Shown piece after piece: positions 23,454 to 58,725 of a stretch of DNA of 64,000 nt. The notes below the pieces were generated by a model, which saw nothing but the letters and a program-made list of their open reading frames with translations, did not search any database and had not been told where the DNA came from. The DNA lies in NCBI GenBank assembly GCA_963761285.1, contig CAVXGJ010000008.1:86062-150061 (forward strand), in the 5' to 3' direction. How positions within the stretch are numbered: position 1 is the first letter of the stretch; each line of letters starts with the position of its first letter. Made by a program: the position numbers and the translations under genes. This stretch comes from an uncultured Actinomycetota bacterium (GTDB lineage: Bacteria > Actinomycetota > Actinomycetes > Propionibacteriales > Nocardioidaceae).

Positions 23454-23483
23454 CATCAGCTAGCAACGCGGGCGCCGGGCCTC

Positions 23484-24005
23484 TTGTCCGGTCCCTGCCT
23501 CGTGCCTTCCGCTAGTCTCCTGCGCAATACCAAACAGATCTACGAGTCCTTCGGGCCGCTAGCGCCGAGTCGCATGGTCCCTCGCGGAGGCGACGGGGCG
23601 GCCGTGCGCTTCGTCGCGAGCAGTGTCGACGACGCGCTCGCGACAGCCGATGAACAGATCGACCTGTTGCTGGACGAGGGCTGGAAGGGTGGCAACATCT
23701 GTCTGATCACCACCGGTCACCGCCACCCAGTGCAGATCGAGCGGACCACCTTCCACGATCAGGAGGGCTACTGGAAGACGTTCTGGGACGACGATGACGT
23801 GTTCTACGGCCACGTCCTCGGTTGCAAGGGACTCGAGCGGCCGGTGGTGGTGCTGTGCGTCAACGATGACGGTGAGCGCGACCGTGCCCGCGAGCGGCTG
23901 TACGTCGGGATGTCGCGCGCTACCGACGTGCTCGTGGTCGTTGGCGACCCCGAGGTGATTCGGCGGGTGGGTGGCGACGACGTCGCGCGGCGGCTCGGGA
24001 TCTGA
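23484..24005 (+). pseudogene. 5'-truncated SF1-like helicase fragment (C-terminal UvrD-like part only)
   Basis: Starts at LRNTKQI; has KGLE and LYVGMSRA motifs but no Walker A/B and no RBS. Confidence 0.65.
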
Positions 24006-24091
24006 AGCCGCAGCGACTTCTTGCTTCTCGCGCCCGCACCGACCGGATCTCGCTCTAGCCTTCTGCTTCCCCCACATCTCGGAGATCCCCC

Positions 24092-25059
24092 ATGGCCGGA
24101 GAATCGGCAGAAACAGTCGCGCGCCGACAGCGCGAGAAGGCAGCCAGACTCGAACGTTCAGCTGAGCTCTGGCAACGCGGCGCGGACGGAGAGCGGGCAA
24201 CTGCCGCCGCACTCGACGCGTTGCCTCGTCAGTACTGGACTGTGCTGCACGACGTGGCCTGGCCAGGTCGCCCGCGCGCCAATATCGACCACGTCGCCGT
24301 GGGGCCGCCTGGCGTGTTCGTCATCGACTCCAAGAACTGGTCGGGCGCGGTCACTCTCGGCTCGGGAGTACTTCGACAATCCGGGCGGAGCCGCGCGTCT
24401 TCGGTCGCCGGGGTGGAAGAGGCAGCGCGAGCGGTGGCGGGGCTGCTGCTGCCGACTGGCGCCGCCGTGACTCGCGGCGTCCTGTGTCTCACCGGTGAGG
24501 CGCAGGTGTCAGGCACGGCGGGAGCCGTTGTCGTCTGCTCGGTCGGGGACCTTTCCGGCTACCTGCTGCGCCTGCCGCCGACAGTCCACGAAGCGTCCTT
24601 CCCGGCCTCGCGGAAGAGGTGAAGCGTCGACTCGAGCCTGCGGACGCAAGGACACCGGCCCCGTTCGCAGCCGGAGCTCCGACCGCCCCGGTGCCGGCGC
24701 CGACTGCGACGCTGCCAGCCGGTGACCGCAGTCGATCAGCGCGGGGCTCGAGTCGTTCGCCCGCCTCCCGCGCAACGGGGTCGAGCCGGGGCAAGTCGTC
24801 TGGCGTCTCCTGGGCACGCTTCCTCAAACCCGCTGCCGGCCTCGCCCTCGCGCTAGTCATGATCACCCAGCCGCAGATCATCACCGGAATCGCGAACGGC
24901 TTCTCCAGCCTGTTCGTCTCTCAGCTCGTCCCGGAGATTCAGACCCCGCCTCCAGTCGAGCCGAGCAGCGGTGGGGACATCAGCGAGACAGACAAAGAAG
25001 GAGCGCAGGAAGGAAAGGCGAGCTCAGCGCGAGGCCGGCTAGTCGTGCAGACCAGCTAA
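24092..25059 (+). CDS. NERD nuclease-related protein with C-terminal TM (frameshift near 24595)
   Basis: GADGE, LHDV, NIDHVAVGPPGVFVIDSKNW; the second frame reads VLPGLAEEVKRRLEP continuously. Confidence 0.75.
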
Positions 25060-25065
25060 CGCCGC

Positions 25066-35689: not shown

Positions 35690-35757
35690 CCCAAGGCGCT
35701 CGCAACTCTGCTTGACTGTGGCCCCGTCGGACGGCGGACCACCGTCAGGGGGAGACG

Positions 35758-36652
35758 ATGAACGACTCGGCGCTGATCAGCATCGGCCTACCGATCGCGC
35801 TGGCGATCATCATGTTCGGCCTCGGTCTCTCCTTGACCGTCGACGACTTCCGGCGGGTCGCCCGCACCCCGCGCGCGGTCGCCGTCGCGCTGGTGCTGCA
35901 GGTGCTGGTGCTGCCGGTCATCGCGTTCGGCCTGGTCGTGGCCTTCGACCTCGACCCGCTCCTGGCCGTCGGGGTGATGCTGCTGGCGGCCTCGCCCGGC
36001 GGCACGACCGCCAACCTGTTCAGCCACCTCTTCCACGGCGACGTCGCCCTCAACGTCAGCCTCACCGCGATCAACTCGGTCCTGGCCGCCTTCACGATCC
36101 CGCTCATCACCAACCTCGCGATCGACTACTTCGACGCCGACGGCGAGCTGGGGCTCCAGGTCGGCAAGGTGCTGCAGGTGATGGCGATCGTGCATCGTGC
36201 CGGTCGTGGTCGGGCATGGTCGTGCGCAGCCGCTCGGCAGCTTCGCGGCGCGCGCCGACCGCCCGGTGCGGATCTTCTCGATCGTGGTGCTCGTCATCGT
36301 CGCCGTCGGTGCCCTGCTGGGGGAGCGCGACAACATCGGCGGCTACCTCCAGCAGGTCGGCCTCGTCACCGGGATCTTCTGCGCCGCCAGCCTCACCCTC
36401 GGCTACGTCGGCGCCCGGGTGATGCGCCTCGACGAGCCGCAGGCCATCGCCAGCTCGATGGAGGTCGGCATCCACAACACCACCATCGCGCTCACCATCG
36501 CGCTGAGCGTCCTCGACAGCACCGAGGTCGCCATCCCGGCGGCCGTCTACTCGGTGCTGATGTACGTGCTCGCGACCGCCTTCGGGTTCCTGATCACCCG
36601 CGGCCGCCGCTCGTCGCGCTCGGCCGGGACCACTGTCGGTGGTCACCCCTAA
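35758..36652 (+). CDS. Bile acid:sodium symporter family transporter (frameshift near 36190)
   Basis: IMFGLGLSLT, SPGGTTAN, GDVAL, MEVGIHN. Confidence 0.88.
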
Positions 36653-36687
36653 CGTCTCTCCCATCGGGACGAGAGGTAGGGGTGAGG

Positions 36688-37953
36688 ATGAGCGAGAGCA
36701 CGGATCTGGAGGCTGCCACCGAGGCGGCGTGGCTGACCTTCCGCGGCCGGCTGGCCGACCACATCGCGGTGATGGACGACGACGACGTGTTGTTCGTCGA
36801 GTTCAGCGGTGTGGTCGACCCGGGTGCCGTCGGCAGCAACCCCTACGTGCAGGTGTGCGCCTTCGACGGTGACCTGGTGCAGGTCGAGGCGGCGAGCAAC
36901 TGCTTCCTGGACGACCGGTGTCTCCTGGGCGCCGATGACCACGCAGCCCTGCTCGCCCTGGGGTGGGACGAGCCCGGCGAGGAGCCCGGCTGGGAGAACT
37001 ACCACCTCACCTTCGAGCAACGCTCCGCCGACGAGGTCGCGGTCCTGCTCGTCGCCACGCTGCGTGAGGTGTACGCCGTCCCGCACCCCGCGTTCGTGCG
37101 CGCCGACGCCCTGGCGCCCGAGGCCGGTGCCCCGGCGCCGGTGGTCGGACCGACGCCGGCCGACGACCCCGAGGAGACCGAGGAGACCGAGCTCGAGGGG
37201 ATCCCCAACGGTCCCGAGCACCTCCAGCTCATGGTCGACGCCGCGCTGACGACGATGCTGCCCGACCTCAAGCACGACCACGACGGCGACATCTCGATCG
37301 TGGCCGGCTCCAGCCTGGTCTTCGTGCGGGTCATCACCGACCGGCCGTGCGTCGAGCTCTACGCCGAGATCGTCATCGGCCCGCAAGACCTCGAACGCCT
37401 CGACACCGAGCTGGTGCTGCTCAATGCGGCCTACCCGCTCTGGAAGTTCGCCCGACGTGACGAGCTGGTCGTGATGACCCACGAGATGATGGCGCTGCCG
37501 TTCGCGTCGTTCGGGTTGCGCACCCTGGTGACGCGGTTCGTCGCGGAGGTCGACCGGATCGCTGCCGACCTGTCCGCCCGGGTCGGCGGACGTCTCTTCC
37601 TCGACGAGGAGCCGGTCGAGGACGAGCGCGACGTGCTGCTGACCGGGCTCCTCGAGCTGCTCCACCTCGAGCGGGTCCGACCGGCGACGGTCGCCGGGCT
37701 CTTCGGCCACGACCGGCTCGAGATCATCCGCCAGATCGTCCGCATCCGCAGCGGCCGGCAGTCGTGCGACGACCTCGATGAGGACGTCGTGCTGACCGCG
37801 CTGCGCAAGGCGCTGCGCTTGGTCTCCGACGGCGAGCCGGTCGCGACGGTGGTGCCGCCGAAGCCGCGTCGGCGCTCGGTGCAGGAGCCGCTGCTCGACG
37901 GGCTCGACGGGCTCGGGGCCGATGGGTCGTTCGACCTGGGGTGGTCTGCCTAG
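36688..37953 (+). CDS. Multi-domain T3SS-chaperone/YbjN-like (TY-Chap) protein
   Basis: PYVQ..., SNCFL...LGW N-terminal domain; DHDGD...GSSLVFVRV...LN...WKF YbjN-like domain (recognised from memory). Confidence 0.55.
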   Translation: MSESTDLEAATEAAWLTFRGRLADHIAVMDDDDVLFVEFSGVVDPGAVGSNPYVQVCAFDGDLVQVEAASNCFLDDRCLLGADDHAALLALGWDEPGEEPGWENYHLTFEQRSADEVAVLLVATLREVYAVPHPAFVRADALAPEAGAPAPVVGPTPADDPEETEETELEGIPNGPEHLQLMVDAALTTMLPDLKHDHDGDISIVAGSSLVFVRVITDRPCVELYAEIVIGPQDLERLDTELVLLNAAYPLWKFARRDELVVMTHEMMALPFASFGLRTLVTRFVAEVDRIAADLSARVGGRLFLDEEPVEDERDVLLTGLLELLHLERVRPATVAGLFGHDRLEIIRQIVRIRSGRQSCDDLDEDVVLTALRKALRLVSDGEPVATVVPPKPRRRSVQEPLLDGLDGLGADGSFDLGWSA

Positions 37954-38372
37954 CTAACGGTAATGGGGACCGCGTGATCGCGTAGGCCGTTGGCGTCGCT
38001 GAGCTTCGCAGGGCCGTTCGTTGGCTGTCGCTGTCGCTGTCGCACCGCCTTCGGGGCCACCGCTGAGCCGGTATCGCATCGCAAGTTGGGTGATCTGGGG
38101 AAGAGCGACAACGGTCGTTCGACGAATAATGCCAAATAGTTCTGACGTCTATTTACACAGGCGGCCGCGCAGGAGTAAGTTTTCTTTACGCCCGGATCGT
38201 GAGTTGGGCAGGTCAGATCTCTCGTGGTCGGACTTTCTCGGCTCCCATCGCGGTGCGTATCCCCGAGGGGGATCTGTTGCAGGTCTCGCGTCGGCCGGTG
38301 ATTCAGAGCATCGGTCGTCGGACGGCGTGAGCAATTCACGCAAGACTAGGCACCAATCTGAGGGAGAAGCAC

Positions 38373-38711
38373 ATGCCTAGCGTCGAAGTAAAGGGAAATC
38401 TCAACAAGTTCTATGAGCAGGTCTCGGCCGATCTGCCAAAGCTCCTTGAGGGCGCCGCAATCGGCAGCGCCATCATCTTCAACAACACCGACAAAGCGGT
38501 GAACTTCTACGTCTACAACTACATCGACAACATCTACCTGGTGTCAGCGATGCACACGTTGGTGGCGCCCGGGAAGGCCGGAAGGGTTGCGGCTTCCGGC
38601 AAGAGCTACAAGGTGCACCCCAACGACGACAAGCGCCAAGAGTTTCTTGTCGACCCCAACAAGGCCTACGTGTATGGGGGCCCTGGCGACATCGAGAACG
38701 TGTCGTCGTAA
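38373..38711 (+). CDS. Small hypothetical protein in a lower-GC islet
   Basis: RBS GAGGGAG; Asn/Tyr/Lys-rich 112 aa. Confidence 0.75.
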   Translation: MPSVEVKGNLNKFYEQVSADLPKLLEGAAIGSAIIFNNTDKAVNFYVYNYIDNIYLVSAMHTLVAPGKAGRVAASGKSYKVHPNDDKRQEFLVDPNKAYVYGGPGDIENVSS

Positions 38712-38824
38712 GACCGTCCACACCGCCAAGACGCAGATGGTCTGGTGCCGGGCACCCCTTGTCACCGGCCCCTGCGTGAGCAGCGATCACCCGCTTGGTG
38801 ACTGACTGAGGGCTCGCTGTCGCA

Positions 38825-38861
38825 GGATTCCCACGTGCTGGCGCCGGCACGTGGGGCATCC
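38825..38861. terminator. Hairpin between the two islet genes
   Basis: GGATTCCCACGTGC...GCACGTGGGGCATCC imperfect inverted repeat. Confidence 0.4.
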
Positions 38862-38955
38862 TGGCGTATTCACATGCGCAGCAAACAATTGATCGAGACT
38901 TCTTTTGATGCGTCGCGTGTTGCACGTGTGCAGTTGTGAGGTGGAGGGAGCCGCC

Positions 38956-39246
38956 ATGAATTGGAAAGATATCAACAAGAGAAACCTCGAACGCATCGAT
39001 GAGGGAGGCAAGCTGTACTACATGCAGGCCGTAAAGCTGGTCCTCATCGGGCCAGGGCACGCAGACCCCGATGTGGAACGCGTCCGCGACTCCTTCAATC
39101 GAGCGGAAGGCGGGCTGGTCAAGATAGAAAATGGCACGCGTTGGGACTTCTTGGCTGATGGCGTAAGGGATCGCCGGGAGTTCGAAGACGCAATCCAAGA
39201 ATGCGGGGGCCGCTACAAGAAATCCAAAGTAACTTACCTGAATTGA
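38956..39246 (+). CDS. Small hypothetical protein in a lower-GC islet
   Basis: RBS GGAGGGAG before ATG; 96 aa; several A/T-ending codons. Confidence 0.7.
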   Translation: MNWKDINKRNLERIDEGGKLYYMQAVKLVLIGPGHADPDVERVRDSFNRAEGGLVKIENGTRWDFLADGVRDRREFEDAIQECGGRYKKSKVTYLN

Positions 39247-39416
39247 GAGCACGGTGCGGCGCTCGTTGGGTCCACCTGGCCGGCCTGACAGACCCGTTGA
39301 CCACGAACTACTGCTGTACCTCCGGAGTGTCTTCCAGACCAGGGGTGGCGGGCCGGTTACGGGGGTTCTTGGCTCGCAAGCTCGCACCTCAACGAGCGTG
39401 TGGCTCGGCGCGCACC

Positions 39417-46467: not shown

Positions 46468-47088
46468 TCAGACGAGGACCTCGATCTCGTTGCCCAGGGT
46501 GGCGCCCTGCTCGAGATCGAGGTCGTCGCCGGACCAGAACTTGCCGGGGTCGTAGTAGTTGGTGGGCTTCTTCGTGTCGAGCAGTCCCATGGACTGGTAG
46601 GTCGAGGCCACCACCTCGGCGCAGTAGGTCATCTCGACGCCGGCCTGGCGGCGGGCCCGGCCCTTGACCCACCGGCCGGCGAGGGCCGCGGTGGCAGGGA
46701 ACGGGGTGCCGTCGAGGCGGGCCACGCTCTGCAGCGCGGCATCCTCCATCTCGCGGGTGACCGCGGGGGAGAGCTGGCGCAACCAGGCCCGCTGCTCGTA
46801 GCGGCCGCACCACTGCACCACCGCCTCGCGCAGGTCGTGGAGCTGGACCCCGCGCTGGTGCTGGCCCGACCAGACGTCGAGCAGGCCCTTGCCGAGCTCG
46901 GCGTGCCACATCAGTGGGGGCAGGTCGTCGACGACGATCGCCATGCCGACGTGGTTGACCGGCGCGTTGGTCAGCACCCGGATAGCGTGGTCGGCGGCGG
47001 AAGCGCCACGGAACAGCCAGAGGTCGCCGGTGCGGGTCAGCTCGACCGCAGCATCGAGCGGCAGGCGGTCTCGGGTCATCGGGGTCAT
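46468..47088 (-). CDS. Permuted papain-like (YaeF/YiiX, NlpC/P60) protein
   Basis: GDLWLFRG, NHVGM His near the N-terminus, YCAEVVA Cys near the C-terminus. Confidence 0.7.
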   Translation of the reverse strand: MTPMTRDRLPLDAAVELTRTGDLWLFRGASAADHAIRVLTNAPVNHVGMAIVVDDLPPLMWHAELGKGLLDVWSGQHQRGVQLHDLREAVVQWCGRYEQRAWLRQLSPAVTREMEDAALQSVARLDGTPFPATAALAGRWVKGRARRQAGVEMTYCAEVVASTYQSMGLLDTKKPTNYYDPGKFWSGDDLDLEQGATLGNEIEVLV

Positions 47089-47311
47089 CGACGTGGGCCC
47101 TCCAGGGCTCATCAGGGGAACGGGAGTGCGGATGAAGCTGAGCGTGTGGAAGCTGCTTGGGTGTCGCCGGCGTGGCCGGTGTCGCCGCCACGGGGGTCAT
47201 CATCGCGCGCGACCAGCGCTCCCGCGCCGACCTCACCCCCGACGAGGTGCGCGAGCGGCTTCACGAGCGGCTCGCCGAAGTCGGCGAGTCCGGCGAGTCG
47301 GCGCCTGGCGG

Positions 47312-47615
47312 CTAGTCGCCGAGGTGGACGCGGACCCGGCGGGCGATCTCCTCAGCCAGCCGCGGTAGCCGCCGGGGGTCTCGTCCAGGTAGACGTAGCT
47401 GCCCATCGCGTCGAGCAGCGCGTCGAGCTCGGCCTCGGTAGAGCGGGGTCGGTCAGGACGGCGTCGAGCTCGACCAGCAGCCTGCGGTTGTCCTCCGGCG
47501 GGCTCGTCGGCGAGGTACTCCTCGAGCCCGCTCCAGAGGGTCTCGAAATCCTCGTGGTAGTAGCCCATCAGCTGCTGCTCAGCTCCGAGTCCTGCATGCG
47601 GTCAGTCTCCCTCAT
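47312..47615 (-). CDS. CdiI-like immunity protein (frameshifted)
   Basis: GYYHEDF motif, acidic, about 100 aa; ATGA-coupled to the toxin stop; reconstructed end WLEEIARRVRVHLGD-TAG. Confidence 0.65.
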
Positions 47616-49002
47616 GGCTTCACGTAGGCGGTGATGATGCGGTAGCCGTCCGGCATGGAGCGTGTCCTTCTTCAGGTAGAGGTGCACCGACGTGCCCTCG
47701 AAGACGTCGCCGGCCCGGTTCATGATCCGGCCCGGATTGGCGACGGGTGCCTCGAAGGCAGTGGACCGCCTGGGGCTGGCGAGGAACCGGGCCAGGGTCC
47801 GGCTCCGTCAGCGCCAGTACGGTCTGGATGGAGCGCTCCGCGGTGGCCTCGTCGGTGAAGGTGGACACCAACTTCTTGCCAGGCTCGTCGATCAACCGCT
47901 GCCTCAAGAAGTCGTCCGACTTGCCGACATGCTTCCCGATCGTGTGCGCCCCCAGCGCCCACCCTCGTGCGCCGCACAAGAACGACCTGGCCCGCCCGCC
48001 GCTCGACCCAGCCTTCCCCACCTCAGCGGTCATCAGCAGCCGCGCCTCGCTCATCGGGCGCAACCGCGCCCCGACGCCGGCCGCGGCGACGCGGGTGCCG
48101 GAGAGGGCCTGGGCGGCTTCGTCGGCGTAGCGCCGCACGAGGTCGAGCATCCGCTTGAAGCGGGGCGCGGCGGCCGCGATCTTGGCGAGGTTGACGGCGA
48201 CGGCGCCACCGTTGGCGGTGCCGAAGCTGACGAAGCCGAGCGCGAAGCCGGCGGCCTGGATGAGGGCGGCGTCGCGGAGCAGGTCGCGGACCAGGTCGAG
48301 GATCGCCGCGCGCTGGGCCTCGACTGCGGCGGCGTACCCCTCGCAGAGGGCGCCCAGATCGCGGCACTGGTCGGCGAGGTCGCCGATCGCGATCACCGCG
48401 CGGCCGATGGCTGCCGTCGCCGGGAGGACCTCGGGGGAGCACTCGGTCCAGAGCTCGTTGATCGCGCGGCGCGGGTGGCCGGCGATCTCGTCGAGACCGT
48501 CGCCGGCGCGGCGCCAGGTGGCGGCGGCACTCCGCAGCCGGTCGAGGTCGGCGTCGGGCCACACGAAGCCCTCGACGTGGTCGAGGATCATGTTGGCCCA
48601 GCCGGGCAGCGACGAGGAGTCCCCGCCCAGCGACCCCGGGGGTGTCGGGGCGAGCACGTCGACCCAGTCGTCGGTGCCGAGCGAGACTCCGTCGACCAGG
48701 CGCACCTCGCCGAGGGTGGAGGCGAGCTCGGCGCGGGTGTGGTTCTCCAGCGAGGCACGCGAGTAGCGGCCCAGGGTGCCCAGGGCGCCGACCACGTCGG
48801 CGAGGGCGGCGCACGCCGCGGCGGCCGCGGCGTCGTACTCCTCGGCCCACCGATCGGCGAACGAGGAGTCGCCGGCCATCGCTGCGGTGTCGACGAGGTC
48901 GTCGGCGAGCCGGCCGACGAGCCGGGCCGCCCACACGTTGGCGAAGTGCAGGAGCCCCGAGGCCTCGCGGTAGCCGCCCCCGGCGATGTCGAGCCGGGTC
49001 AC
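47612..49002 (-). CDS. CpnT-like type VII secretion polymorphic toxin with RNase-A-like C-terminal domain (frameshifts in toxin domain)
   Basis: N-terminal MAGD...YD..A...N..AE and VWPDADLDRLRSAAATWR; C-terminal HE.G..GAHTIGKHVGKSD...STF...SMPDGYRIITAYVKP. Confidence 0.8.
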
Positions 49003-49301
49003 AGGCGCTCCCACATCGCCAGGTTGGCGCGCACCGCCGCGCCGTAGTTGGTGCGTGCGGTGCTCGCCGCCGTACGCATCGCCGCCAGGCCCTCGCGCAT
49101 CGTCGCGAAGCCGGTCTCCCACCGCGCCTGCGCCTCGAGCTGGGCAGCAGCTGCCTGTCCCTCCCAGGTCAGGTGCAGCCGACCTACTTGGCGCACGACG
49201 TCGTCCAGCGCCCGGTCGCACTCCTCCTCGCAGGCGACGAGGCTCTCGATGGTCTGCGCGAGCAGGTCCAGGTCCACGGCGTACGCCGCCGGGTGGCTCA
49301 T
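48999..49301 (-). CDS. esxE: WXG100 protein, EsxE-like
   Basis: 100 aa; RLHLTWEGQAAAAQLEAQARW...NYGAAVRANLAMW. Confidence 0.8.
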   Translation of the reverse strand: MSHPAAYAVDLDLLAQTIESLVACEEECDRALDDVVRQVGRLHLTWEGQAAAAQLEAQARWETGFATMREGLAAMRTAASTARTNYGAAVRANLAMWERL

Positions 49302-49627
49302 CCGAGGCGCTCCACGAGCCGGCGGGTCAGCGAGACCAGGGCGGTGCGCGCGGAGTCGTCGGCGCCGTCGGCCTCGGCGCCGGCGTCGACGATCAGTGCC
49401 GTCAGGCTCCGCAACGCGCCCAGGACCTCGTCGCAGCCGAGGCGCCACTCCTCCCAGCCCTCGAGGTAGGAGCGCGCCGCGGCGCCGGACCAGCCGCCGT
49501 CGAGGAGCACGTCGACCTGGCGCTCGGTGACCCGTCGGCGCCGCTCGAGGTCGTCGCTCACCCGCTGCAGGGCTGCGACGGTGGCGGCGAGGTCAGGGTG
49601 GCTGAGCTGGAGGAGGGGGTGGGTCAT
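49298..49627 (-). CDS. esxF: WXG100 protein, EsxF-like
   Basis: 109 aa; GGWSGAAARSYLEGWEEWRLG; RBS GGGAG. Confidence 0.75.
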   Translation of the reverse strand: MTHPLLQLSHPDLAATVAALQRVSDDLERRRRVTERQVDVLLDGGWSGAAARSYLEGWEEWRLGCDEVLGALRSLTALIVDAGAEADGADDSARTALVSLTRRLVERLG

Positions 49628-49662
49628 GGGAGCTCCCGAGTGAGTCCGTGGGTGACGCCTCC

Positions 49663-49717
49663 AGCCTGACCCGGATCGAGGGCTCGGAAGCGGCCCGCGG
49701 AGCAATCTGTGGATAAC
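49663..49717 (-). promoter_or_regulatory. DnaA-box-type motif plus -10 for the esx operon
   Basis: Minus strand GTTATCCACAGATTGCTCCG (from 49717); CAGGCT starts at 49668, 48 nt from the box. Confidence 0.7.
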
Positions 49718-49747
49718 TCCGGACTTCGTCCTGGCACACTGACCCCC

Positions 49748-50725
49748 ATGCCGGACGACTTCGTCATCGCCCGCAACCCCGACGGCGACTCAGCGCTGCC
49801 CTACCTGCTGCGGATCCCGCTCGGCGACGACGGGATCGTGCTGAAGTCGCGCGAGACCTGGCCGCGCACCACGAAGGTCTACTGCCATCGTGTCGAGGCC
49901 TGGCCCGAGGACGCCGAGGTGATCGAGCGGGTGCCGGTGCGCAGCTGCATCCGACGCGGGGCCTCGATCGACCTGGTGCTCGACCGGGGCCGGGAGAACC
50001 GGTCGCAGCTCGTGATGACCCGGATCCGTGGTGGCCGGCAGGCGATCTTCTGGCAGACCGCGCGCACCGCCAAGCAGGCTCGCCCGGCGGTGGCGGTGCC
50101 GCGCGCTCGCGCGTCGGGGCTCACCGGGCAGGCAGGCCTCGAGATCGTCGTCGACTCCCACGAGCGCTACGCCTACAGTTTCGCCGACCAGCAGGTCGTC
50201 ACCCGCAAGGCGGGGCTCTCGGCCGGTGACTACGGGGTGGTGCGCGACGAGGTGCTCATCGCCTCGGTCGAGCGCAAGAGCCTGGTCGACCTCGTCTCGT
50301 CGCTGACCTCCGGCAAGCTGAAGTACCAGCTCGCCGACCTGTCCAGCGTCCCGCGGGCAGCCGTCGTGGTCGAGGAGCGCTACTCGGCGATCTTCAAGCT
50401 CGACCGGGTGCGGCCGGCGGTGGTGCTCGACGGCCTCGCCGAGTGTCAGGTGCGCTGGCCGCAGGTGCCGATCCACTTCTGCGAGACCCGCAAGCTCGCC
50501 GCCGAGTGGACCTACCGCTTCCTGGCCGCCGCCTCGGTCGCGGCGGGGGAGGACGACCACGGCGCGGAGGTCGTCTCCACCCTCAGCACCCCGCCGCCGC
50601 TGGCCGCCGCCCCGGCGACGCCGGCGGAGATCAGGAGCTGGGCGGCGAGCAACGGCTACGAGGTCTCCGACCGGGGGCGGGTGCGCCGCGAGGTCGTCGA
50701 GGCCTTCGAGCGCTCGCGCGGCTGA
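49748..50725 (+). CDS. ERCC4-type nuclease with C-terminal Lsr2-like DNA-binding domain
   Basis: VVDSHE, AGDYG, VERKSLVDL; AEIRSWAASNGYEVSDRGRV; CACACT -10 7 nt before ATG. Confidence 0.85.
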   Translation: MPDDFVIARNPDGDSALPYLLRIPLGDDGIVLKSRETWPRTTKVYCHRVEAWPEDAEVIERVPVRSCIRRGASIDLVLDRGRENRSQLVMTRIRGGRQAIFWQTARTAKQARPAVAVPRARASGLTGQAGLEIVVDSHERYAYSFADQQVVTRKAGLSAGDYGVVRDEVLIASVERKSLVDLVSSLTSGKLKYQLADLSSVPRAAVVVEERYSAIFKLDRVRPAVVLDGLAECQVRWPQVPIHFCETRKLAAEWTYRFLAAASVAAGEDDHGAEVVSTLSTPPPLAAAPATPAEIRSWAASNGYEVSDRGRVRREVVEAFERSRG

Positions 50726-54073: not shown

Positions 54074-55242
54074 ACCTCGCGGGTCTGCTCCGCGATGGCG
54101 GTCCAGGCGAAGGACTCGATCGCTCGCTCGCGCCCGGCCCGACCGTACGACGCCGCGCGGTCGGGGTCGGCGACCAGCTCGTTGAGGGCGTTGGCGAAGT
54201 CGGCCACGTAGCCCTCGGGGTCGAGCGGGGTGCCGGTGCCGTCGTCGGACTGCTCGATCGGGACGAGGAGACCGGTGGAGCCGGGCACCACGACCTCCGG
54301 GATGCCGCCGGTCGCGGTCGCGACGACGGCGGTCTCGCACGCCATCGCCTCGAGGTTGACGATGCCGAGCGGCTCGTAGATCGAGGGGCAGGCGAAGACG
54401 GTCGCCGCGGTGAGCAGGGCGACCACGTCGGGTCGGGGGAGCATGTCGCGGATCCACACGACGCCGGTGCGGGTAGCGGCGAGGGCCTCGACCAGGGTCA
54501 CGACCTCGGCTTCGATCTCCGGGGTGTCGGGGGCGCCGGCGCAGAGCACGATCTGCACCTCCGGCGGCAGCTGGGCGACCGAGCGCAGGAAGAGCGGCAA
54601 CCCCTTCTGGCGGGTGATCCGACCGACGAACACGACCGAGGGCCGGTCCGGGTCGACCCCGAGCTCGCGCACCCGGTCGGGTGCGTGCAGCGGCGCCCAG
54701 TCGACGGTGTCGATGCCGTTGTGCACGACCTGGACCCGCTCGGGATCGATCGCGGGGTAGGACGCCAGGACGTCGTCGCGCATGGCCGCGGAGACCGCGA
54801 TCACCGCAGCCGCGGACTCGTAGGCGGTGCGCTCGGCCCAGGACGACACGGCATACCCGCCGCCGAGCTGCTCGGCCTTCCACGGGCGCAGCGGCTCGAG
54901 GGAGTGCGCGGTGACGACGTGGGGGATGCCGTGCAGCAGGCCTGCGAGGTGGCCGCCCATGTTGGCGTACCAGGTGTGGGAGTGCACGAGGTCGGCCCCA
55001 CCGCACGCATCGGCGATCCGCAGGTCGACGCCGAGCGTCGCCAGCGCCGGGTTGGCTCCTGCGAGCTCGGCCAGGTCGGCGTACGCCGTGGTGCCGGGCT
55101 CGTCACGAGCCGCGCCGAATGCGCGGACCCGGGCATCGAGCCCGTCGAGTCCGCGAAGGGCTCGCACCAGCTCGGCGACATGCACCCCCGCTCCGCCGTA
55201 GACCGCGGGTGGGTATTCCTTGCTCAGGACGTCGACTCGCAC
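54049..55242 (-). CDS. glgA: GT4 glycosyltransferase GlgA (actinobacterial, alpha-maltose-1-phosphate synthase type)
   Basis: KEYPP.VYGGAGVH, HSHTWY, GRITRQKG, YEPLGIVNLEAMAC; divergent from glgC. Confidence 0.93.
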   Translation of the reverse strand: MRVDVLSKEYPPAVYGGAGVHVAELVRALRGLDGLDARVRAFGAARDEPGTTAYADLAELAGANPALATLGVDLRIADACGGADLVHSHTWYANMGGHLAGLLHGIPHVVTAHSLEPLRPWKAEQLGGGYAVSSWAERTAYESAAAVIAVSAAMRDDVLASYPAIDPERVQVVHNGIDTVDWAPLHAPDRVRELGVDPDRPSVVFVGRITRQKGLPLFLRSVAQLPPEVQIVLCAGAPDTPEIEAEVVTLVEALAATRTGVVWIRDMLPRPDVVALLTAATVFACPSIYEPLGIVNLEAMACETAVVATATGGIPEVVVPGSTGLLVPIEQSDDGTGTPLDPEGYVADFANALNELVADPDRAASYGRAGRERAIESFAWTAIAEQTREVYRLASRL

Positions 55243-55318: not shown

Positions 55319-56557
55319 GTGAGCGCGCGCCCGAAGGTCCTGGCCATTGTCCTTGCTGGTGGAGAGGGAAAGCGGCTGATGCCGCTTACCGCCGATCGAG
55401 CCAAACCCGCGGTGCCGTTCGCCGGCATCTACCGCCTGATCGACTTCGCCCTCTCGAACGTCGTCAACTCCGGCTACCTCCAGGTCGTCGTGCTGACGCA
55501 GTACAAGTCGCACAGCCTCGACCGGCACGTCACCCAGACCTGGCGGATGTCGTCGATGCTGGGCAACTACGTCACGCCGGTGCCGGCCCAGCAGCGCGTC
55601 GGGAAGCACTGGTACCTCGGCTCGGGCGATGCGATCTTCCAGTCCCTCAACCTCATCAAGGACGAGAAGCCCGACATCGTGGTGGTCGTCGGGGCCGACC
55701 ACGTCTACCGGATGGACTTCTCCCAGATGGTCGACCAGCACGTCGAGAGCGGCGCCGCGTGCACGGTGGCGGCGATCCGGCAGCCGATCGAGATGGCCGA
55801 CCAGTTCGGCGTCATCGACGTCATGCCCGACGACCCGCGCCGCATCCGCGACTTCCTCGAGAAGCCCACCAACCCGGCCGGGCTGCCCGACAGCCCCTCC
55901 GAGGTGCTCGCCTCGATGGGCAACTACGTCTTCGACGCCGACGCCCTGGTGGAGGCCGTCACCCGCGACGCGACGACCGAGGGCTCCAAGCACGACATGG
56001 GCGGCGACATCGTGCCGGCGTTCGTGCGACGCGACCAGGCGGCCGTCTACGACTACCAGGACAACGTGGTGCCCGGGACCACCGAGCGCGACAAGGGCTA
56101 CTGGCGTGACGTGGGGACCCTCGGGTCCTACTACGCCGCCCACATGGACGTCGTCTCACCGTTGCCGATCTTCAACCTCTACAACTTCGACTGGCCGATC
56201 TACACCTCCTACGGACCTCAGCCGCCGGCCAAGGTCGTGGCCTCCGGTGGCCACCAGTCGGAGATCGACGAGGCCGTGCTCTCACCCGGTGTGGTCGTCA
56301 GCGGCGGTCGGGTCAAGCGCTCGGTCCTGTCGCCGGCGGTACGGGTCGGGGAGGGTGCCACGATCGATGGCTCGGTGCTGATGAACGGTGTGATCGTGGG
56401 TGCCGGCGCGGTGGTGCGCAACGCGATCCTCGACAAGAACGTCGTCGTGCCGCCCGGCGCGCAGATCGGTGTCGACGCGGACGCCGACCGGGCGCGGGGG
56501 TTCCTCGTCGAGGACGGGTTGACCGTGCTGGGCAAGGACCAGGAGTTCCCGGGCTGA
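55319..56557 (+). CDS. glgC: Glucose-1-phosphate adenylyltransferase
   Basis: [35 protein letters not shown], left-handed beta-helix tail. Confidence 0.96.
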
Positions 56558-57448: not shown

Positions 57449-58707
57449 TTACTTGGCGTAGACGCCGATGGCGTTGGCGACCTTCCGCTCGGCGCCGTCG
57501 GAGGGTGAGTTGGTGATCTTCACCTTGCCGTTGGGCCGGCGGGCCAGCATCGTCGAGGAGCCGCCGCCGTCGAGGTTGAGCGCCTCGTCGGCGCCGAGCT
57601 CGATCATCAGCTCGGCCAGCTCGACCATCGTGTAGCCGCGGCTGAAGTCCTGTCGTCCGTCGATGACGAGCAGCAGCAGCCGGTGGGTGTCGCGGTCGAT
57701 GCCGATGGCGGTGCGTGGGTGGAGCTCGCGGTCGTCGACGACCTTCACGACCCCGTCGTCGATGAGGAACTGGTTGCCGGTGATCGCCATTCTGGGGGAG
57801 TCGGCCAACCGTGAGACCAACGAGACCCGCGAGCCCTTCTTCAGCCGGCGCAGCGCCTCGGCTCCGGGGCCCCGACCGATGAGCATCCGACCCTCGAGGA
57901 GCTTGCCCGACGTCAGCTTGGTCCGGTTGCGGATCACCACGCCGTTGCGCAGCAGCACCATCCGCACGTCGCGGGTCTGCCCGTCGACGACCCGGTAGCC
58001 GGAGGTCCTGCCCCACGAGGGCGAGTAGACGCCGATCCCGCCGATCGCCACCGACGGTGAGTTGACGTTGGTGATCTCCACCCCCGGCCGCTGCTTGATC
58101 GTCGTGACGACCTCGAGGGTGCCGATCTGCGGGACCCCGCGGCGGCCGAGGTAGAACGCGGAGTTCCAGCCGCTGAGCCGGCCGTGGAGCAGTCCTCGCT
58201 GGCGGTCGCGTCCGATCCCCAGCGGCGCACCGGTGTCGCCGATGTCGAAGAAGTCGCCGTTGACCCCGGCGATCGCACCGTCGCTCTTGAGCATCCTGCT
58301 CGTGGTCGCGGTCCGGGCGACGTGGCCGGTGTTGGCGTAGTCGAGGCTGAGCCCGTTCTGCTTCCAGTCGACGCTCAGCAGGTGGGCGCGGACCGGTCCT
58401 CGTTGGTCCGTCTGGTCCCACGAGGTGGCGATGATGCCGGGGGCCACCTCCCACTGCTTGCGGATCGACACGTCGCGGGCCACGTCGCCCGAGCCGTTGC
58501 CGGACCCGCGCGCAGCCGTCGATCGCGGTCGCGCGATGGCGCCCACCACGCCGTCACTGGTCTGGGGCACGTCGTCGGCGGTGCGCACCCGCGAGGCGGG
58601 GTCGCCCGACGGATCTGGGTCGGCGGGAAGGGGGAAGGCACGGCCAAGGCAGCCGGTGCGATGAGCACGGGCAGGCAGGCAAGGACGAGCGAGGGGAAGG
58701 TTCGCAC
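57449..58707 (-). CDS. Secreted phosphodiester glycosidase (NAGPA/DUF2233 family; frameshift near 58600)
   Basis: GVNGDFF, HPRTAIG, VIDGRQ, ALNLDGGGSS; signal peptide in the adjacent frame. Confidence 0.88.
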
Positions 58708-58725
58708 TACCTCAGAGTAAGGAAC

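Follow-up and report, generated by a model that had tools for sequence, protein, structure and literature searches.

A probable polymorphic type VII toxin-immunity cassette with a predicted RNase A-like tip in a Nocardioides-like soil actinobacterium

Several toxins that travel with small WXG100 partner proteins have been characterized in Actinomycetota. Secretion of the Mycobacterium tuberculosis toxin CpnT needs EsxE/EsxF and a YxxxE motif (PMC8092274, PMC7810871), and the cpnT operon is unlinked to any esx locus yet Esx-dependent (PMC8092274, PMC8593097). EatA is an ESX-4-dependent antibacterial toxin of M. abscessus, whose authors report comparable loci across Actinomycetota with a variety of tips, TNT and nucleases among them (PMC13444075). 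A second line of relatives comes from contact-dependent growth inhibition (CDI) systems, among them the CdiA-CT/CdiI pair of Yersinia kristensenii, CdiA-CT/CdiI(Ykris), with which the family of bacterial RNase A-like toxins was founded. That effectors of the WXG100 type can carry RNase A-like tips has already been noted (Batot et al. 2017, PMC5435912).

Here we describe a four-gene locus at positions 47312-49627, minus strand, of a 64 kb stretch of metagenome-derived DNA (contig CAVXGJ010000008.1; the whole 64,000-nucleotide stretch is called the window). The source DNA is high in GC (~70%), and its nearest protein relatives are from Nocardioides and other Nocardioidaceae. The genes run in the order esx1, esx2, toxin and immunity gene, and the toxin joins a CpnT-like N-terminal domain (the chassis) to a bacterial RNase A-like tip. 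We consider it likely that the locus is a chromosomal polymorphic type VII (Esx) toxin-immunity cassette of a Nocardioides-like soil actinobacterium, and that the indels that break its last two genes are assembly errors.

Gene layout and domain content

The toxin occupies two adjoining segments on the minus strand, an N-terminal chassis of residues 1-320 (48043-49002, GTG start at 49002) and a linker (residues ~321-340) followed by the RNase A-like domain (residues ~341-462; 47612-48042, including the true stop codon TGA at 47612-47614). In its deposited form the tip matches the Pfam family PF18431 (RNAse_A_bac) with 41.6 bits over profile positions 1-46 of 113; on the repaired toxin of 462 amino acids the match rises to 71 bits and covers positions 1-112 of 113. 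The repair, described below, gives the protein the C-terminal end PDGYRIITAYVKP at TGA 47612-47614. A profile built from 28 family members matches the RNase domain of CdiA-CT(Ykris) (5e3e_B) over its full length (E 2e-23, 33% identity).

Mutagenesis identified His175, Arg186, Thr276 and Tyr278 of CdiA-CT(Ykris) as active-site residues (PMC5435912). Their equivalents in the repaired toxin are H358, R369, T457 and Y459. Across the family alignment H358 and R369 are invariant and T457 is conserved in at least 90% of members; Y459 is present in both the window protein and the consensus. The deposited frame loses T457 and Y459. In the AlphaFold2 (AF2) model of P0002, an intact homologue with 73% identity, the RNase domain superimposes on 5e3e_B with a template modelling (TM) score of 0.89 and a root-mean-square deviation of 1.6 Å over 114 residues, at a predicted local distance difference test (pLDDT) above 90. 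These matches support the assignment of the tip to the bacterial RNase A-like domains and its prediction as an RNase, the reading that the preliminary description had reached for its reconstructed C-terminus.

The N-terminal part of the toxin is intact as deposited, with no gaps relative to short-read contigs over 47980-49656. Residues 144-273 match PF25547 (WXG100_2, "WXG100 like domain") with 43.5 bits (cut-off 27), and UniRef names the family members "CpnT-like N-terminal domain-containing", both in line with the CpnT-like N-terminus claimed earlier. Conserved features include an M42-A-G44 turn in the first hairpin and the motif VEGFVWPDAD (143-152). The P0002 model shows two long helical hairpins and then a further hairpin with a Gly/Ala-rich turn (helices 9-39/49-96 and 153-184/192-259/263-318, pLDDT mostly above 85). 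Apart from the RNase domain, its best fold matches are to EspB (4wj2 and others) and are weak (E 5e-3 to 4e-2, TM 0.41-0.57); EspB 4WJ2 also served as the template on which the CpnT N-domain was modelled (PMC8092274). CpnT has an essential Y88xxxE export motif after its first helix-turn-helix (PMC8092274). At the apparent equivalent of this position the present family has H88xxxE92, at the end of helix 2 and invariant in 46 of 46 aligned members.

The Pfam scan of the toxin gave no match to the LXG domain or to the TNT domain PF14021. As it has no TNT domain, the window toxin is a relative of CpnT in its chassis and not a CpnT orthologue. A moderately hydrophobic Gly/Ala-rich hairpin lies at residues ~245-280. 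We considered a strong transmembrane segment in the N-domain and rejected it, the best stretch (245-263) reaching a borderline Kyte-Doolittle value of 1.54.

Upstream of the toxin stand two WXG100 genes, as first described. The esx1 product (49298-49627, minus strand; 109 amino acids, W46-S-G48) matches PF06013 with 39 bits (E 9.7e-10), and that of esx2 (48999-49301, minus strand; 100 amino acids, W46-E-G48) with 43.6 bits (E 3.7e-11), against a cut-off of 27.3 for both. Among solved structures, the best ESAT-6-type relative of esx1 is 4i0x_A, the ESAT-6-like protein MAB_3112 of M. abscessus (E 1e-4); 8fre_A (RBL4) outscored it over 40 residues, but no stretch passed alone. The nearest solved relatives of esx2 are 4i0x_B, which is MAB_3113 of M. 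abscessus (E 1.4e-5), and 4lws_B. We take 4i0x to be the EsxEF pair. Reading of the translations by eye showed no C-terminal YxxxD/E or HxxxD/E export signal in esx1 or esx2.

The last gene (47312-47615, minus strand; ATG at 47615, stop TAG at 47312-47314) encodes, once repaired, a protein of 100 amino acids that matches PF18593 (CdiI_2) with 35.4 bits over positions 4-90 of 91 (cut-off 26.7). A rough first reading of the same gene had scored 23 bits, and five homologues score 37-68 bits. Translation starts at the ATG at 47615 and not at the ATG of MGYYHEDF at 47568, and the N-terminal extension so gained, MRETDRMQDSEL, matches the homologue start MRNVDEASEL. With an immunity homologue as query, the top match in the PDB was 5e3e_A (CdiI Ykris), a weak one (E 0.14); the two have a YxxQDF-type N-terminal motif in common. 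The profile match supports the last gene as a predicted immunity gene of the CdiI_2 family, as the preliminary description had supposed; the profile searches it had proposed against RNAse_A_bac and CdiI families both score above cut-off after repair.

The four genes overlap one another. By direct reading of the sequence, the esx1 stop and esx2 start form an ATGA overlap, and the esx2 stop and toxin start a GTGA overlap; the ATGA overlap of the toxin stop and immunity start is present only after frame repair. Of the overlaps first claimed between the four translationally coupled genes, the first two junctions stand in the sequence as deposited, and the third depends on the repair. A GGGAG ribosome-binding site lies 5 nt 5' of the esx1 ATG. 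Scans of 47000-49900 for sigma-70-type promoters and intrinsic terminators gave no matches. Scans of the whole 64 kb window for tRNA genes and Rfam families returned nothing, so that neither an integration site nor a riboswitch is indicated close to the locus.

The divergent neighbour at 49709-50725 (plus strand) encodes an ERCC4 nuclease domain fused to an Lsr2 DNA-binding domain and stands beside the cassette in ~10 relatives. Its start is ~80 bp from that of esx1, and a regulatory region may be common to both. On the other side, a 52-codon open reading frame (ORF) at 47157-47315 (plus strand) converges on the immunity gene, overlapping its stop by 4 nt. It has no Pfam match and is kept at 65-86% identity beside a 214-amino-acid gene in 17 relatives; the indel site 47155 immediately precedes its start.

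Frame breaks in the toxin tip and immunity gene

Eight single-base indels within 626 bp disrupt the two genes as deposited, four in the toxin (~47976, 47956-61, 47808 and 47660-63) and four in the immunity gene (~47577, 47499, 47439 and 47351). The deposited toxin ORF has 460 codons for amino acids, ends at a stop at 47620 and leaves the true frame after about residue 398. Its last 60-odd residues are out of frame, and tblastn with intact homologues, together with three-frame reading, places the true continuation in two other frames. A compensated +1/-1 pair also garbles the conserved motif SFLxAHEGGP, which immediately precedes the RNase domain. In the public gene call P0001 (460 amino acids) the tail is scrambled as it is in the deposited reading.

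We compared the region with Logan contigs assembled from short-read metagenomes in four public runs. The contigs differ from the deposited sequence at 47351, 47439, 47499/47503, 47577, 47660/47663, 47954-47961 and 47974/47976, which are seven of the eight sites required; the eighth, 47808, was placed by homologue alignment only. For the indel correction proposed in the preliminary description, public short-read contigs supply every site but this one. The repaired toxin of 462 amino acids has the same length as its nearest relatives, aligns with them end to end and keeps every invariant column.

The breaks are strongly clustered. Eight sites fall within 626 bp, whereas the adjoining 1.7 kb (N-domain and esx genes) has none and a further 12 kb of flank has ~7, which makes 7 in 13.7 kb of flanking sequence (Poisson p ~2e-9). 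Over 47100-47529 the best contig shows 9 substitutions and 4 gaps, a ratio typical of consensus error and not of gene decay. The same segment is one of population heterogeneity. Short-read depth drops from 10-30 to 0-5 across 47464-47918, and precisely at 47980, where N-domain and tip meet, a well-covered contig passes over into another allele of RNase type. Among 41 related loci with a measurable toxin ORF, truncated toxin ORFs occur in 9 of the 27 from MFD metagenome-assembled genomes (MAGs) and in none of the 14 others. We take the MFD MAGs to be nanopore assemblies of Danish soils.

Single-base indels relative to near-identical short-read contigs also occur in isolation at 47155, 49686, 56595, 58629 and 60358/60361, some of them intergenic. 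Those at 47155, 49686 and 58629 are present in every run compared there. Site 58629 lies inside a NAGPA-domain gene (57449-58711, minus strand), and 60358 is near the start of a DNA-methylase ORF. These isolated sites indicate that the assembly has a low background of such errors, so that other gene calls in the record may also be truncated by them.

We think it most likely that the eight indels arose as errors in the consensus of a long-read metagenome assembly, at a place where strains living together differ in their cassettes. This reading follows from the clustering of the sites, the ratio of substitutions to gaps, the heterogeneity of the population, the background of indels elsewhere and the limitation of truncated toxins to MFD MAGs. 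Programmed frameshifting was considered and rejected: the eight sites run in both directions, have no slippery sequences and are absent from the short-read contigs. Inspection by eye found no common motif around the sites of the kind that a methylation-linked systematic error would leave. For annotation the finding points to a hazard, in that consensus indels of long-read metagenomes gather in strain-variable toxin and immunity cassettes; gene calling in these MAGs may in consequence systematically miss the genes of such cassettes or report them as truncated.

Four other parts of the window drew our attention. At 38000-39400 there is a low-GC island (0.575-0.60 versus ~0.70) between a DUF1295 gene and an oxidoreductase fragment, which holds only short or unrecognised ORFs without Pfam matches and may be foreign or degraded DNA. 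A frame of 745 codons at 35716-37953 (plus strand) combines an SBF membrane domain (bile acid/sodium symporter family) with two YbjN/T3SS-chaperone-like domains (TY-Chap3, TY-Chap1); either the fusion is an unusual one, or an assembly indel has joined two genes. Directly after a class II ribonucleotide reductase gene, 23454-25060 contains a short ORF with only a C-terminal fragment of a UvrD-like helicase and then ~1 kb without a convincing ORF, perhaps a broken helicase gene or an error-affected stretch. In two segments, 54211-55012 and 55414-56215, short-read contig depth is 150-290 versus ~15 around them (10-20x). They cover glycosyltransferase and glucose-1-phosphate adenylyltransferase-like genes, whose conserved sequence probably recruits contigs from many taxa.

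Tip exchange, proposed mechanism and alternative readings

A profile search with the N-domain retrieved 249 proteins. The best 120 of these, as listed, are all close family members, and M. tuberculosis CpnT is absent among them. The pairing of PF25547 with PF18431 occurs in at least 40 database proteins, mostly from Nocardioides and Nocardioidaceae. Two siblings, P0109 and P0122, have TNT (PF14021, 104 bits) fused to the same N-domain; other fusions join it to colicin D (PF11429, 67 bits) and to several unrecognised tips (428-433 amino acids). A warhead swap would be expected to leave one N-domain with such different tips, and the swap on a CpnT chassis that the preliminary description had proposed gains support from it.

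We collected 46 loci from Nocardioidaceae genomes. The order esx1-esx2-toxin is present in ~40 of them, with an esx1 homologue upstream of the toxin in 37 and an esx2 homologue in 41, and a CdiI_2 homologue lies 3' of the toxin in most loci that have an RNase tip. The window's own neighbours, such as the ERCC4-Lsr2 gene, the 214-amino-acid protein and a sortase gene, are kept in ~12 loci. By this gene context the locus is chromosomal and not prophage or plasmid cargo. Intact copies of the cassette are present in cultivable type strains, such as N. aquiterrae JCM 11813 (locus L029) and N. sediminis KCTC 19271 (locus L027).

Extra CdiI_2 copies were found in three loci: L012 has four units in tandem, L006 has two, and L022 has an orphan. 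As far as sequence comparison goes, the exchange of tip and immunity gene together with such extra immunity copies is the standard signature of polymorphic toxins. In L012 (7269-8590) one separate CdiI_2 copy is followed by three units in a single 312-codon open frame; the other extra units lie at L006:7428-7973 and L022:7778-8002. The copy in L022 is an immunity homologue behind a toxin in which no match to the window's RNase tip was obtained. In Nocardioides aquiterrae a second homologue of the toxin N-domain (L029:12471-13292) is located ~5 kb downstream of the first; a single genome can therefore carry several cassettes of this family.

We propose that the four genes, which are translationally coupled, form a single expressed operon, and that the two WXG100 proteins bind the helical CpnT/EspB-like N-domain, as EsxE/EsxF, TapA1/A2 or Lap proteins do, to form an export-competent bundle. 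An EccC-type machine with its genes at another place in the genome would recognise this bundle and export it. The C-terminal 120 residues would adopt the bacterial RNase A fold, with a His-Arg-Thr/Tyr active site, and would degrade RNA, without need of a metal ion, in a neighbouring bacterium that has no antidote; in the Yersinia homologue the substrates are tRNA and rRNA. The 100-residue CdiI_2 protein would cover the active site and so protect the producer and its kin. In this scheme the N-domain would be a conserved delivery chassis, and tip and immunity gene would be exchanged between strains as a unit. To our knowledge, Nocardioides and the Nocardioidaceae are monoderm and have no mycolic-acid outer membrane. 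Since there is no mycomembrane to cross, the model of CpnT/EsxEF as an outer-membrane channel is not transferable as it stands.

Several points weigh against the cassette that we propose. The toxin tip and immunity gene are non-functional as deposited. The short-read contigs that restore them are ~99.5-99.9% identical to the window in the flanks; their source populations are close relatives, but not provably of the same strain. The fold was modelled on the homologue P0002 and not on the deposited or repaired toxin. A pattern scan of the toxin found no canonical YxxxD/E export motif. No type VII core gene (EccC, EccB, EccD or MycP) was detected by Pfam among the ~55 ORFs across the 64 kb window of the 314,858-bp contig, as the preliminary description had remarked, and none occurs in the sampled flanks of relatives, where 10 large ORFs are housekeeping or unrelated genes. 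Throughout the Nocardioides family, secretion, toxicity and immunity are predictions from homology.

Three other readings were weighed against these data. That the cassette is a genuine pseudogene in this strain, with the tip and immunity gene decayed and the esx pair and N-domain remaining, we regard as unlikely. The eight frame breaks of the deposited sequence are confined to the tip and immunity gene, and the tail of the database gene call P0001 is scrambled likewise. As the contigs that correct the breaks are from related populations and not provably from the same strain, we leave a real pseudogene a small share of the probability. Yet eight indels with very few substitutions are unlike normal bacterial gene decay, and the repaired reading has no in-frame stop and has lost no invariant residue. 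Indels of the same kind are found elsewhere in the window, intergenic sequence included, and broken copies are found only in long-read MAGs (9/27 vs 0/14). The indel cluster itself coincides with a segment of heterogeneous population, a known cause of consensus errors.

The other two readings accept an intact cassette and differ over its use or its route of export. It is improbable that it serves something other than interbacterial competition, as an intracellular toxin-antitoxin or phage-defence module or as an anti-eukaryote toxin like CpnT. No secretion machine is linked to the locus, CpnT does act on host cells (PMC8593097), and the cited passages of PMC10654092 leave the role of the PEST cassette undecided between virulence, competition and phage defence. 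Against such a role, a cytoplasmic RNase with linked immunity, tip swapping and extra immunity arrays together form an inter-strain toxin signature, and the locus is chromosomal, with the same neighbours in ~12 genomes, and not in a prophage. The organism is a soil bacterium, and EatA, the nearest tested analogue, is antibacterial (PMC13444075). We think it very improbable that the toxin leaves the cell by some export or release route distinct from type VII, with the WXG100-like genes serving only to chaperone or stabilise it. The canonical YxxxD/E is missing and there is no Esx machinery nearby, but the N-part of the toxin and the two small proteins match only WXG100-type Pfam families, and the best fold matches outside the RNase domain, weak as they are, are to the ESX substrate EspB. 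The invariant H88xxxE92 at the end of helix 2 stands at the position of the CpnT export motif (PMC8092274), and the cpnT operon is likewise unlinked to esx loci, yet Esx-dependent (PMC8092274, PMC8593097).

Returning to the antibacterial type VII cassette, we put forward a wider scenario that is possible but doubtful: that the locus is a conserved slot of the Nocardioidaceae which cycles RNase A, TNT, colicin D and unknown tips, and that the CpnT domain arose as an antibacterial carrier, its channel role in M. tuberculosis coming later. Under such an origin, H88xxxE92 would be a variant export signal that replaces YxxxE, and the Gly/Ala-rich hairpin at ~245-280 would carry the tip across the target membrane.

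Antibacterial toxins of type VII systems are well established in Bacillota, and in Actinomycetota the demonstration came only in 2026, with EatA in mycobacteria. The cassette offers a well-conserved example outside Mycobacteriales, with a tip from a biochemically understood family for which a complex of homologue and immunity protein has been solved. Its intact copies in cultivable strains would make it a convenient model for the export of CpnT-like domains without a mycomembrane. The TNT-bearing siblings would also tie the tuberculosis toxin CpnT to an environmental family of interbacterial weapons.

Comparison with known systems

The esxF-esxE-cpnT-ift operon of M. tuberculosis has the same plan as the window locus, with two WXG100 genes, a toxin with a helical N-domain of ~300 residues and an immunity gene. 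CpnT also has an N-domain of family PF25547 with an EspB-like fold (PMC8092274) and an operon unlinked to secretion machinery, and its TNT tip recurs in siblings of the window toxin. The two differ at the tip, which in CpnT is the TNT NAD+ glycohydrolase paired with IFT and here is RNase A-like and paired with CdiI_2. CpnT has Y88xxxE, whereas the window toxin has HxxxE and half the length of CpnT. CpnT acts on macrophages; the likely target of the window toxin is bacteria.

With CdiA-CT/CdiI of Yersinia kristensenii ATCC 33638 (5E3E), the locus has in common a tip that is homologous over its whole length, the four active-site residues and the Pfam family of CdiI. CDI systems consist of CdiB and CdiA, with filamentous haemagglutinin repeats and a pre-toxin motif, whereas the window tip sits on a type VII-style N-domain in a Gram-positive host. 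The window has no CdiB or two-partner secretion genes and no large filamentous CdiA with a pre-toxin motif. As the window toxin lacks the CdiB/CdiA features, only the module of tip and immunity is common to it and CDI.

Two further mycobacterial systems have a similar layout. PEST3 of M. abscessus prophages, described by the Hatfull lab, according to the cited passages of PMC10654092, also has two WXG100 genes, a polymorphic toxin and an immunity gene, its tips and immunity genes recombine, and its N-domain of ~300 residues consists of two WXG100-like hairpins superimposable on CpnT. PEST3 as described there is prophage-borne and from Mycobacterium, whereas the window locus is chromosomal and from another order of Actinomycetota; those passages report no RNase A tip for PEST3. 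The EatA-TapA1-TapA2-EatI locus of M. abscessus (PMC13444075) repeats the layout of two helical accessory genes, a toxin with a helical N-domain and immunity downstream. EatA has as its tip an arabinanase of the cell wall, whose site of action is outside the cytoplasm and whose inhibitor is a lipoprotein, while the window locus has a predicted cytoplasm-acting RNase tip and a predicted soluble, acidic immunity protein.

The LXG toxins of Bacillota (type VIIb) and their Lap partners follow the same logic, with an xG turn (here M-A-G), upstream partners, a variable tip and immunity downstream. Their N-domain belongs to another Pfam family, and the machinery in Actinomycetota is VIIa-like. The cassette is of a type already described, as RNase A-like WXG100 effectors (2017), PEST3 (2023) and EatA (2026).

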